A stretch of 39,100 nt of DNA from sequence record ON637250.1; one strand, 5' to 3'. Under the pieces are notes generated by a model. That model saw nothing but the letters and a program-made list of their open reading frames with translations, was not told the DNA's origin and searched no databases. Both the position numbers and the translations under genes were made by a program. Of the stretch, positions 21,175 to 25,989 are shown piece by piece; the stretch's first letter is position 1; each line of letters begins with the position of its first letter. Source of the stretch: Escherichia phage 6925.

Positions 21175-21197
21175 ACTAAACTATCACTATAGGGAGA
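21175..21197 (+). promoter_or_regulatory. Phage RNAP promoter (phi10-like), strongest consensus match
   Basis: ACTAAACTATCACTATA|GGGAGA; +1 at 21192. Confidence 0.8.
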
Positions 21198-21299: not shown

Positions 21300-22349
21300 A
21301 TGGCAAACGTTCCGGGTCAGAAAGTTGGTACAGACCAAGGTAAAGGCAAATCTGGTTCCGACGCTCTGGCGTTGTTCTTGAAGGTCTTTGCTGGCGAAGT
21401 CCTGACAGCATTCACTCGCCGCTCTGTAACTGCTGACAAGCATATTGTCCGTACCATTCAGAACGGTAAGTCTGCTCAGTTCCCGGTCATGGGTCGCACC
21501 TCTGGTGTGTATCTGGCTCCGGGTGAGCGACTGTCCGATAAGCGTAAAGGTATCAAACATACCGAGAAAGTGATTACCATTGATGGTCTGCTGACTGCCG
21601 ATGTGATGATTTTCGACATTGAAGACGCGATGAACCACTATGACGTGGCTGGCGAGTATTCCAACCAGCTAGGCGAAGCGCTGGCTATCGCTGCTGATGG
21701 TGCGGTACTGGCTGAGATGGCTATTCTGTGTAACCTACCGGCTGCATCTGATGAAAACATCGCTGGTCTTGGCAAAGCGTCTGTGCTGGAAGTTGGTACT
21801 AAAGCAGACCTGAACACTCCGGCTAAGCTGGGTGAAGCAATCATCGGTCAACTTACCATTGCTCGTGCGAAGCTGACATCCAACTACGTTCCTGCTGGCG
21901 ACCGTTACTTCTACACCACACCGGACAACTACTCTGCAATCCTCGCGGCTCTGATGCCGAACGCTGCTAACTATGCTGCGCTGATTGACCCAGAGACTGG
22001 TAACATCCGTAACGTAATGGGCTTCGTGGTTGTTGAAGTTCCACACTTGACTCAGGGTGGTGCTGGGGAAACTCGTGGTGCCGATGGTATCACTATTGCG
22101 ACTGGTCAGAAGCACGCCTTCCCAGCTACTGCTACTGGTGATGTTAAAGTTGCTCTGGACAACGTTGTGGGCCTGTTCTCTCACCGTTCTGCTGTAGGTA
22201 CTGTTAAGCTGCGTGACTTGGCGCTGGAACGTGACCGCGACGTCGATGCTCAGGGCGACCTGATTGTTGGTAAGTACGCTATGGGTCACGGTGGTCTGCG
22301 TCCAGAAGCAGCAGGCGCACTGGTTTTCACAGCGGCGTCAGCGGGTTAA
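21300..22349 (+). CDS. 10A: Major capsid protein (10A)
   Basis: 349 aa; LALFLKVF.GEVLTAF, KSAQFPV.GRT, HTEKVITIDGLLTADV, AILAALMPNAANYAALIDPE, RSAVGTVKLRDLALER and KYAMGHGGLRPEAAGA match T7 gp10A. Confidence 0.97.
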   Translation: MANVPGQKVGTDQGKGKSGSDALALFLKVFAGEVLTAFTRRSVTADKHIVRTIQNGKSAQFPVMGRTSGVYLAPGERLSDKRKGIKHTEKVITIDGLLTADVMIFDIEDAMNHYDVAGEYSNQLGEALAIAADGAVLAEMAILCNLPAASDENIAGLGKASVLEVGTKADLNTPAKLGEAIIGQLTIARAKLTSNYVPAGDRYFYTTPDNYSAILAALMPNAANYAALIDPETGNIRNVMGFVVVEVPHLTQGGAGETRGADGITIATGQKHAFPATATGDVKVALDNVVGLFSHRSAVGTVKLRDLALERDRDVDAQGDLIVGKYAMGHGGLRPEAAGALVFTAASAG

Positions 22350-22612
22350 CGACCTTTAAGGCCCTCTCTACCGAGGGTCCTACCTTAGAGACGTATAGTT
22401 CTACGGTGGGAACCAGCTTGAAGGTTGACTTCCCGGAGCTTTCAGATGTGACCGACTGGTCGCTGCTTGATGTTACTACGCCTGATGGTGTTAGCTACTC
22501 CCGTAGAACCAACAGTCTCTACTTCAAGGCCACCTCTGGCGTGGAAGGTCTAGTGATTGTTGAGTATGACGGTTCGCCTGTGCGTTCCTTCAACGTATCT
22601 TTCACAAACTAA
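22322..22612 (+). CDS. 10B: Putative 10B-specific C-terminal extension reached by programmed -1 frameshift at the GGTTTTC slippery site (22322-22328)
   Basis: Heptamer G_GTT_TTC sits 7 codons before the 10A stop. The -1 frame is open for about 95 codons from the slip site to a TAA at 22610-22612, immediately before Tphi. Confidence 0.55.
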   Translation, partial: GFHSGVSGLTTFKALSTEGPTLETYSSTVGTSLKVDFPELSDVTDWSLLDVTTPDGVSYSRRTNSLYFKATSGVEGLVIVEYDGSPVRSFNVSFTN

Positions 22613-22615
22613 TTG

Positions 22616-22655
22616 AAACCCCTTGGGTGCCTTCGGGTGCTTGAGGGGTTTTTTG
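22616..22655 (+). terminator. Tphi-like intrinsic terminator for phage RNAP
   Basis: AACCCCTTGGGTGCCTTCGGGTGCTTGAGGGGTTTTTTG: a GC-rich hairpin plus T6 run, closely resembling T7 Tphi, directly after the capsid gene. Confidence 0.85.
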
Positions 22656-22669
22656 CTTAAGGAGGGAAT

Positions 22670-22759
22670 ATGGTCCTTATTTACACAGGGTTAGCACTAT
22701 TCGTTTTATTCTGGGCGTACCTTCTGTCCAGCTCACCGTCTAGTGCCTATGACCGTTAA
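22670..22759 (+). CDS. Possible mini-ORF (29 aa, one hydrophobic helix) between Tphi and gene 11
   Basis: AAGGAGGG then ATG, MVLIYTGLALFVLFWAYLLSSSPSSAYDR. The RBS and ATG sit where T7 has the gene 11 start; here an in-frame TAA separates it from the gene 11 ATG at 22772. Confidence 0.35.
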   Translation: MVLIYTGLALFVLFWAYLLSSSPSSAYDR

Positions 22760-22771
22760 GGAGTAAAACCT

Positions 22772-23338
22772 ATGGCTCAATACATTCCACTGAATGCTAA
22801 CGATGACTTAGATGCCATCAACGATATGTTAGCAGCTATCGGTGAACCAGCAGTCCTACAGCTTGACGAAGGTAACGCTGACGTCTCGAACGCTCAACGT
22901 ATCCTGCATCGTGTCAATCGTCAGGTCCAAGCTAAAGGCTGGAACTTTAACATCAACGAAGCTGCTGTCCTGACACCTGATGTCCAAGACAATAGGATTC
23001 GATTCCTGCCGTCTTACCTTCGGGTCATGACTGCTGGTGCTACCAGTTACTACAGCAACATGGGGGGCTATCTCTATGACCTGTCCACTCAGTCCACGAC
23101 CTTCACTGGACCAATTACAGTCGAACTGGTGGAGATGAAACCGTTCGCTGAGATGCCTGTAGTATTCCGTGACTACATCGTTACCAAGGCTAGCCGTGAG
23201 TTCAACGCTAAGTTCTTCGGTAGCCCAGAGTCTGAACTGTACCTTCGTGAGCAGGAAGCAGAACTCTACCAGCAGGTGATGGAGTACGAGATGGACACTG
23301 GTCGCTACAACATGATGTCCGACATCGGGAGGGACTAA
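22772..23338 (+). CDS. 11: Tail tubular protein A
   Basis: 188 aa; INDMLAAIGEP, QRILHRVNRQVQAKGWNFNI, YVTKASREFNAKFFG and MEYEMD match T7 gp11. RBS TAAGGAG. Confidence 0.93.
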   Translation: MAQYIPLNANDDLDAINDMLAAIGEPAVLQLDEGNADVSNAQRILHRVNRQVQAKGWNFNINEAAVLTPDVQDNRIRFLPSYLRVMTAGATSYYSNMGGYLYDLSTQSTTFTGPITVELVEMKPFAEMPVVFRDYIVTKASREFNAKFFGSPESELYLREQEAELYQQVMEYEMDTGRYNMMSDIGRD

Positions 23339-23565
23339 TGGCTAGTCACAACCTGAAGATTCACCGCCAGCACTTTGGTCCGGTACAACTAGGTCTAAAG
23401 ACAGCAGAGCTGAGACTTAACGACCGGGACTTTAATGTTGGCGACTGGCTTATCCTGAATGAGTGGGACAACGGGTATACTGGACAACAGGTAGCACGTA
23501 AGGTTGTCCACATTGCTGACGTTGGTGACATCGCTGAGGGATACGTCCTAATGAGTATGATTTAA
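23338..23565 (+). CDS. ASCH/PUA-like small protein (DUF3850-type signature) inserted between tail tubular A and B
   Basis: 75 aa; the H.LKI...F.PV..G.KT.E.R.NDRDF.VGDWL.L.EWD...YTG pattern fits the DUF3850/ASCH signature as I recall it. Start overlaps the gene 11 stop (TAATG). T7 has gene 12 directly after gene 11. Confidence 0.6.
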   Translation: MASHNLKIHRQHFGPVQLGLKTAELRLNDRDFNVGDWLILNEWDNGYTGQQVARKVVHIADVGDIAEGYVLMSMI

Positions 23566-25939: not shown

Positions 25940-25989
25940 AAGGGCCTATAGATTTACCTTAACTATCACTATAGGGACTATAGGCCCTT
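25940..25989 (+). promoter_or_regulatory. Phage RNAP promoter (phi13-like, -17..+6 at 25957-25979) nested inside a perfect 12-bp inverted repeat
   Basis: CCTTAACTATCACTATA|GGGACT with +1 at 25974. Arms AAGGGCCTATAG (25940-25951) and CTATAGGCCCTT (25978-25989). Confidence 0.7.

Follow-up and report, generated by a model that had tools for sequence, protein, structure and literature searches.

A 29-codon reading frame ahead of gene 11 in Escherichia phage 6925: a probable membrane microprotein gene on a small mobile cassette

Escherichia phage 6925 (record ON637250.1) was analysed over a stretch of 39,100 nucleotides (nt), called the window in the following, to which all coordinates refer. The phage is a Kayfunavirus (K1F-like, T7 group), and the 1.1 kb around the element considered here are 98.5% identical to vB_EcoP-U8 and 97.7% identical to LM33_P1. 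This element is a mini open reading frame (mini-ORF) of 29 codons between the Tphi-like terminator that closes the gene 10 transcription unit and gene 11, which encodes the tail tubular protein A. It is not peculiar to phage 6925 but one of a recurrent family of small cassettes, which are present in some phages and absent from others; relatives without the cassette are referred to as empty-site relatives.

The junction between the capsid terminator and gene 11

The following features make up the junction.

22615..22654, + strand: Tphi-like class I terminator, 17-base-pair (bp) hairpin at 22615-22652 and six-T run at 22649-22654 (fold, terminator scan, alignment with T7 Tphi)
22659..22666, + strand: Shine-Dalgarno sequence (SD) AAGGAGGG, the ancestral gene 11 ribosome-binding site (RBS) now serving the mini-ORF (identical sequence before gene 11 in empty-site relatives; T7 equivalent)
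22667..22768, + strand: cassette of about 102 nt (alignment; missing from empty-site relatives, Peacock and CLB_P1 matching in two pieces)
22670..22759, + strand: mini-ORF, with ATG start, 29 codons and TAA stop (22757-22759), peptide MVLIYTGLALFVLFWAYLLSSSPSSAYDR
22670..22729, + strand: predicted single transmembrane helix, codons 1-20 (hydropathy; hydrophobicity kept in all four lineages)
22730..22756, + strand: polar juxtamembrane tail SSPSSAYDR, codons 21-29 (family alignment)
22757..22763, + strand: TAAGGAG, the mini-ORF stop fused to a new gene 11 SD (all lineages have an SD copy at the right cassette end)
22772..23338, + strand: gene 11 (tail tubular protein A / tail adaptor), 188 amino acids (aa) (PHROG 446 tail protein, E = 9e-68)

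The terminator is followed by GCTTAAGGAGGGAAT, which leads into the ATG of the mini-ORF. A previous inspection of the letters alone (the sequence-only reading) had recognised the RBS and start of T7 gene 11 in this segment, and the T7 record does read GGGGTTTTTTGCTGAAAGGAGGAACTATATG(gene 11) at the same offset; the SD of the mini-ORF is thus positionally that of gene 11. The same reading had described a 29-codon frame for a single hydrophobic helix, ended by an in-frame TAA shortly before a gene 11 equipped with its own RBS. Both descriptions are accurate: the frame begins with ATG, the peptide has a Kyte-Doolittle mean of 2.2 over 19 residues and a negative Hessa-scale sum for residues 1-19, and the stop lies within TAAGGAG, 12 nt ahead of the gene 11 ATG at 22772. 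By itself such a frame is not beyond chance, 29 consecutive open codons having a probability of about 0.25 ((61/64)^29); it is the conservation across relatives, as judged from sequence comparison, that lifts the mini-ORF above chance.

Nine sites matching the phage promoter consensus ACTAAACTATCACTATAGGGAGA are found on the + strand of the window (2819, 6140, 8021, 17312, 20150, 21185, 25967, 33243 and 38506); they share the core (A/T)AACTATCACTATAGG(G/A), and the fullest consensus, ACTAAACTATCACTATAGGGAGA, is that at 21185 before gene 10. A search of the window for this promoter gave no site from Tphi to the end of gene 12, the nearest ones being that at 21185 and, beyond gene 12, that at 25967; a sigma-70 scan gave no match in the cassette, and the terminator scan gave no terminator after the mini-ORF. 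The genes 11 and 12 of T7 have no promoter of their own and rely on read-through of Tphi. As there is no promoter between Tphi and gene 11, the mini-ORF would be transcribed only by such read-through, as the first cistron before genes 11 and 12, and we infer that it is a late gene expressed at the level of the tail genes.

A peptide family at one syntenic site

Homologous peptides are encoded at the same syntenic site in four lineages, that is, Kayfunavirus alleles A (the one of the window) and B, Przondovirus, and Klebsiella/Proteus Molineuxvirinae; in total, family members occur in about 86 of 50,697 phage records. Searching with the window peptide (tblastn) retrieved allele A from 46 phage records, always at the Tphi-gene 11 locus, 27 of them identical in protein sequence and the others 83-95%; Vec13 carries a further variant. 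Allele B (MFYLLTALGLFVSFWAIILLTGPCSPYDR / M(IM)FYLLTALGLFVSFWAIILLTGPCSPYDR) is present in 15 records, including ZG49, vB_EcoP_F, R1 and HC12, and its ORF is about 56% identical to the window allele at the nucleotide level, between a terminator and a gene 11 that are identical. Weak tblastn matches from allele B led to the Przondovirus form, MFIVLSAVSLAVATMLYVVVTGPCSPYDK, in six Klebsiella phage records, and Molineuxvirinae account for 17 Klebsiella/Proteus records (MYYLLCVTLLLFASFWCYVLATGPVSVAE... / MYYLLCVTLLLFASFWCYVLATGPVSVAERRDNANSK).

In all lineages the ORF comes directly after the capsid terminator, with a strong SD upstream and the tail tubular A gene directly downstream; in Molineuxvirinae it continues across the gene 11 SD and has a 32-nt overlap with the start of gene 11. 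In the alignment, a hydrophobic segment of some 20 residues precedes (T/S)(G/S)P-x-S-x-(Y/A)-(D/E)-(R/K), in which P23 and S25 are invariant, and the window allele has every feature of the family: location after the capsid terminator, strong SD, a length in the range of 29-37 codons, N-terminal helix and P-x-S. Pairwise peptide similarity exceeded that of all 20,000 composition-preserving shuffles for every pair of lineages except Przondovirus versus Molineuxvirinae (p = 0.001).

The frame beginning MVLIY/MFLIY is the sole one open in all alleles, frames 2 and 3 carrying stops, and gapless BLOSUM scores are 59-91 in frame 1 and about 0 or negative in the other two. Apart from one frameshift at the 3′ end, some 20 different DNA alleles keep this frame uninterrupted. 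Within lineages the ratio of nonsynonymous to synonymous substitution rates (dN/dS; Nei-Gojobori) is 0.15-0.31, with no lineage reaching 1; for allele A compared with allele B the proportion of differing synonymous sites (pS) is 0.81-0.91, i.e. saturated, and that of nonsynonymous sites (pN) is 0.31-0.33. Pooled over the four lineages, 23 segregating changes are synonymous and 24 nonsynonymous where 24.7% synonymous changes are expected (binomial p = 2.8e-4), a rough test given the small counts, the relatedness of the alleles and the lack of a transition/transversion correction, with the same direction in every lineage. By codon position the changes number 16/7/24. All alleles keep a segment of helix-grade hydrophobicity (Kyte-Doolittle 19-mer mean 2.15-2.57, negative Hessa sum). 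Substitution patterns of this kind point to a coding constraint that is moderate, not strong.

About 63 of the 225 records similar to the 1.1-kb region of the window carry allele A or B. Carriers make up about 58 of 108 records named after Escherichia or Kayfunavirus, as opposed to 1 of 59 for Salmonella and none for Enterobacter (0/19), Citrobacter (0/8) and Shigella (0/6), the denominators being approximate and the records non-independent. The bias towards phages of E. coli and Klebsiella may reflect a host-specific role, or just the set of phages that encounter one another and recombine. K-12 is among the hosts of carriers (LNA3, LNA5, KM02), so the peptide is not linked to any one capsule or O antigen. 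An "Acinetobacter phage vB_Aba_01KA" (PV615262.1) contains the identical E. coli Kayfunavirus cassette and differs by no more than 1 bp in length from vB_Eco_1RS (PV615263); its Acinetobacter baumannii host label looks doubtful.

Degenerate-pattern scans yielded additional Kayfunavirus alleles only (three IMG/VR loci and two metagenome loci) and 0 loci in GTDB genomes; phmmer with the 32-aa window translation against 1.84 billion representative proteins had one match, a PM129-type allele. Pfam, NCBIfam and PHROGs hold no family for the peptide (E <= 1 or E <= 10) apart from transmembrane matches at chance level, 5,426 E. coli genomes and PLSDB gave no match that could indicate a host or plasmid source, and no paralogue or duplication was detected within the window, where the SD matched another SD only. 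The exact peptide is deposited only as "hypothetical protein" entries; family members are annotated in this way as QZI78483.1, XCO38099.1, WQZ00629.1, XKM46406.1 and KPN7_10, and the conserved 29-codon ORF is left unannotated in the RefSeq entry of LM33_P1 (NC_031937), in U8, in phiHAO1-1 and in many other records. A literature search, covering the peptide motifs and small membrane proteins of Kayfunavirus/Autographiviridae, found nothing on the mini-ORF.

Empty and filled junctions

In Peacock and CLB_P1 the flanks are 98% identical to those in the window, about 100 nt are missing, and the junction reads GCTTAAGGAGGG-CCTATGGCTCAA, with gene 11 annotated directly after Tphi. Relative to this junction the window has about 102 extra nt, and many Kayfunavirus contigs of IMG/VR are likewise uninterrupted, which bears out the earlier proposal of an insertion of about 100 bp at the start of gene 11. 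The breakpoints of the cassette are ambiguous by a few nt: each end has a copy of TTAAGGAG and (C/A)TATGG. Among 32 IMG/VR contigs with the terminator 20-mer, one (Vec13) has the mini-ORF and one (L018) a larger insert; in the remaining ones nothing, or only a short promoter-like insert, separates the terminator from the tail tubular A gene, and those lacking the mini-ORF include divergent Kayfunavirus as well as other genera. The empty arrangement also exists in more distant Kayfunavirus, in other Studiervirinae and in T7, from which it follows that the empty junction is ancestral and the filled one derived.

The polymorphism recurs outside Kayfunavirus, with six filled and four empty sites in Przondovirus and 17 filled and four empty sites in Molineuxvirinae; each of the three lineages thus has empty-site siblings, with flanks more than 95% identical. 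In every lineage the indel is bracketed by copies of SD or start sequence, namely TTAAGGAG...(C/A)TATGG for allele A, the 15-bp direct repeat AGGAGGCTTTATGTT (gene 11 SD plus ATGTT) at both cassette ends in Przondovirus, where the mini-ORF and gene 11 both start ATG-TT, and AGGAG(G/A)GA in Molineuxvirinae. An allele B variant from IMG/VR (L061, MCYLLIALGLFVSFWVTMLLTGPCSPYDR) starts on the very GAGAGGAGACTTATG used by gene 11 in its empty-site relatives. Within one cluster of flanks (at least 97% identity over 700 bp) four states of the junction coexist, that is, empty, cassette A, cassette B and an endonuclease VII ORF; such variety on near-identical flanks marks the Tphi-gene 11 junction as a hot spot of exchange and insertion. 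The sequence-only reading had named, as speaking against itself, relatives with an uninterrupted gene 11 combined with a frame that is not conserved; the former exist, whereas the latter was not borne out, the frame being conserved.

The endonuclease VII ORF is the larger insert of L018 (IMGVR_UViG_3300045988_000061, ~300-746), in which an ORF of 143 aa takes the place of the mini-ORF at a junction matching 22655-22771 of the window. It matches Endonuclease_7 (PF02945, E = 1.6e-19; His-Me finger), its flanks share about 97-98% identity with those of empty and cassette-bearing phages, and by this domain match it looks like a homing endonuclease. Two different gene 11 RBSs, GCTTAAGGAGGGCCTATG and GCTTAAAGTGAGAGGAGACTTATG, are found at "empty" Kayfunavirus sites (L009, L019, L021 and L023 versus L002 and L003); cassette A stands in the context of GCTTAAGGAGGGCCTATG and cassette B in that of GCTTAAAGTGAGAGGAGACTTATG, which suggests separate histories of insertion or exchange. 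In five Studiervirinae that are not Kayfunavirus (L011, L012, L027, L028, L031) a phage-promoter-like ..ACTCACTAATGGGAGGA.. rather than a bare SD is located between terminator and gene 11, giving genes 11 and 12 their own promoter.

Two further peculiarities are seen in the neighbourhood. Gene 10A occupies 21300-22349, and the -1 frame is open from 22292, before the gene 10A stop (22347-22349), to 22612, with a slip site GGTTTTC at ~22323-22329; this open frame fits the gene 10B extension of a T7-like 10A/10B frameshift, as far as can be read from the frame and slip site. Several GenBank relatives have only a free-standing "hypothetical protein" of 68 aa (equivalent to 22406-22612) annotated, not the joined 10B. 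Between genes 11 and 12 lies an ORF of 75 aa (23338-23565, + strand), the ATG of which overlaps the gene 11 stop (ATGA-type, 23338) and which matches DUF3850/ASCH (PF12961, E = 3.7e-19) and PHROG 986 "RNA-binding protein"; since T7 has no gene at this position, it is another accessory insertion in the tail-gene block.

Interpretation and comparison with known systems

The mini-ORF is probably a genuine, dispensable accessory gene for a single-pass inner-membrane microprotein of 29 residues, borne on a mobile cassette of about 100 nt before gene 11. The cassette sits exactly between the ancestral RBS of gene 11 and gene 11 itself; it captures the old SD (and, in some alleles, the old ATG) and supplies gene 11 with a fresh stop plus SD, TAAGGAG. 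Expression would be late, through read-through of Tphi, the mini-ORF being the first cistron of the gene 11-12 message. Gain, swap and loss of the cassette may occur during co-infection, by recombination or slippage at microhomologies for which the conserved terminator on the left and the SD/start sequence on the right are the likely sites. Residues 1-20 of the peptide are predicted to insert into the cytoplasmic membrane, where the conserved helix and the juxtamembrane tail may bind a membrane protein partner, as do bacterial and phage peptides of the same size; because the helix diverges between lineages while the P-x-S-x-Y-D-R/K tail persists, the tail is suspected to be the specific contact.

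As to what the peptide might do, modulation of a host envelope or membrane-defence factor is the tentative first candidate; tuning of holin-dependent lysis timing appears unlikely, and exclusion of superinfecting phages more unlikely still. Improbable, and equally so, are an action of the mini-ORF solely in cis on gene 11 translation and the lack of any function. A broader conjecture, which is doubtful in its present form, is that a micro-cassette of about 100 nt, composed of a microprotein gene and a spare RBS, crosses Autographiviridae subfamilies by means of RBS microhomology, and that the tail targets a conserved enterobacterial membrane factor; if true, a new mechanism of phage counter-defence, exclusion or lysis timing would reside on a mobile protein-coding unit that is among the smallest described in lytic phages.

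Several observations weigh against a genuine accessory gene of this kind. No family, domain or homologue of known function was found, any function of the peptide is wholly inferred, and the literature search yielded no proteomic or ribosome-profiling data for translation or membrane insertion of the mini-ORF. The p-value of the pooled test is rough, coming from few changes in phylogenetically non-independent alleles. For allele A the constraint is only moderate (10 nonsynonymous versus 9 synonymous segregating changes); its variants are V2F, G7W, A9V, S20P, A26P/L and R29H/C, the last replacing the terminal arginine of the tail by H or C, and in the allele of 22664UKE3-2 the final three residues are altered by the loss of 1 nt from a run of C. 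It is also conceivable that the host association just mirrors which phages recombine together.

The alternative that survives best, improbable as it is, holds that translation between the Tphi hairpin and gene 11 matters and the peptide does not, i.e. that the mini-ORF is a cis-acting upstream ORF or spacer which increases the distance of the gene 11 SD from the hairpin and couples initiation to terminating ribosomes, the stop being inside the SD. Such coupling would agree with the embedding of the stop in the gene 11 SD, 12 nt before the ATG, an arrangement common to Kayfunavirus alleles A and B and Przondovirus (Molineuxvirinae differ by their 32-nt overlap), and with the position of the SD at empty sites, only about 5 nt past the T-run of the terminator. 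A spacer or upstream ORF, however, would not constrain amino-acid sequence, length, hydrophobicity and C-terminal motif, all of which are conserved with synonymous sites saturated; moreover, gene 11 has a strong, well-spaced SD with and without the cassette, and most relatives as well as T7 do without it. Of the two possibilities left by the sequence-only reading, a small membrane peptide or an upstream ORF, the first has therefore gained, the frame being conserved as protein in four lineages, and the second, in its pure form, has lost, given the constrained peptide and the strong SD that gene 11 keeps; a cis effect may exist alongside a function of the peptide.

Even less probable is a neutral recombination scar or selfish filler, that is, about 100 bp of junk DNA deposited at a hot spot, with a functionless frame. 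The junction is such a hot spot (empty sites, two cassette alleles, an endonuclease VII gene, promoters in other genera), presence and absence are polymorphic, a 29-codon ORF alone is not improbable, and one allele is frameshifted at its end. A scar, on the other hand, does not account for a frame kept intact in the remaining alleles, for dN/dS below 1 in every lineage, or for protein similarity across subfamilies at identical synteny. T7 DNA readily deletes between short direct repeats; retention of the cassette despite the repeats that flank it argues mildly for selection.

That the functional unit is a nucleic-acid element (structured RNA, processing site or promoter) instead of the peptide is very improbable. 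The region of 201 nt folds better than its shuffles (z = -2.1), a weak signal which stems from the terminator hairpin; taken by itself, the cassette shows no such advantage over shuffles (z = -0.61), six diverse alleles yield a consensus fold of -1.0 kcal/mol with no covariation, the cassette has neither a sigma-70-like nor a phage promoter, and substitutions concentrate at third codon positions. The overlapping alternative frame annotated in Pipis (PV714130) as a coding sequence with RBS (L048, 570-674; TTG start, LRGFFCLRRDYGPYLHMVSTIRLILGVPAAKLTV, "single TMD", i.e. transmembrane domain) is the least probable candidate for the real gene, as it starts inside the terminator hairpin and is closed or different in the window (MGAFGCLRGFLLKEGIWSLFTQG*) and in allele B, Przondovirus and others, only the MVLIY/MFLIY frame being open throughout.

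Microproteins below about 30 aa are routinely missed, and this one is unannotated in many records and annotated in the wrong frame in one. Natural "knock-outs" on near-identical backgrounds make its function directly testable, in phages developed for therapy against extraintestinal pathogenic E. coli (ExPEC) and Klebsiella, and the peptide would offer an inexpensive handle for engineering if it turned out to act on lysis timing, host range or exclusion. The cassette also illustrates how a tightly packed lytic T7-like genome can gain a gene without disturbing the neighbour: the incoming gene makes use of the SD already there and comes with a substitute for it.

Compared with the Tphi-gene 11 junction of the T7/T3 type, the terminator, the SD and its offset from the T-run are the same; there, and in most Kayfunavirus, this SD opens gene 11, whereas here it opens the mini-ORF and a second SD follows about 100 nt downstream.

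Among small membrane proteins of phages, holins and antiholins of T7-like phages (gp17.5 class) resemble the mini-ORF product in being small membrane proteins of a lytic phage expressed late, as the mini-ORF probably is; unlike them, the peptide reaches at most half their size, has just one helix and lacks a highly charged C-terminal domain. An assignment as holin or antiholin was rejected: a transmembrane domain is present, but the tail is a variable one of nine residues with one D and one R, and the mini-ORF lies between capsid and tail genes, about 13 kb upstream of the lysis cassette at ~35.6-36.6 kb, whose holin and spanin ORFs were assigned by position and size. A lipoprotein of the Rz1/Cor/Llp type was likewise discarded, as there is no lipobox [LVI][ASTVI][GAS]C; allele A has no Cys, and allele B and the Przondovirus form read T-G-P-C, with Pro at -1.

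Bacteria possess single-helix membrane microproteins that bind a larger membrane protein, among them KdpF (29 aa), PmrR (29 aa), AcrZ and MgrB. The mini-ORF product is of the same size class and has the same make-up of one helix and a few polar residues; those, however, are chromosomal host genes, while the family described here has no similarity in the E. coli genomes, GTDB genomes and plasmids searched.

Phage D3 has a hydrophobic peptide of about 31 aa, Iap. Iap is reported to block the O-antigen polymerase, and the small Gnarl proteins (40-90 aa) to alter the O antigen, Gnarl3 binding cytoplasmic GalU (PMC12373910); the supplementary tables of PMC12373910 do not contain the motifs of the mini-ORF family. 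With these proteins the mini-ORF product shares the character of a very small stand-alone phage accessory protein; theirs bind host factors and perform no catalysis.

Finally, morons are additional genes that have entered between phage genes of conserved order (Cumby et al. 2012, PMC3594210). The cassette agrees with them in being extra DNA between genes that are adjacent in close relatives (empty and filled sites on 97-98% identical flanks), in its horizontal spread and in its dispensability. Its GC content is 43% as compared to 50% for the window, in the 10th percentile of 102-nt windows, with the qualification that hydrophobic codons should be AT-rich anyway. Classical morons, in contrast, are autonomous, with promoter and terminator of their own, and mostly reside in temperate phages, whereas the cassette has neither, borrows the SD of its neighbour, measures about 100 nt and is found in a strictly lytic phage. 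The mini-ORF would be a small accessory phage membrane protein gene or moron-like insertion, not a new kind of system, and it belongs to a previously unrecognised cross-subfamily microprotein family with a clear insertion architecture.

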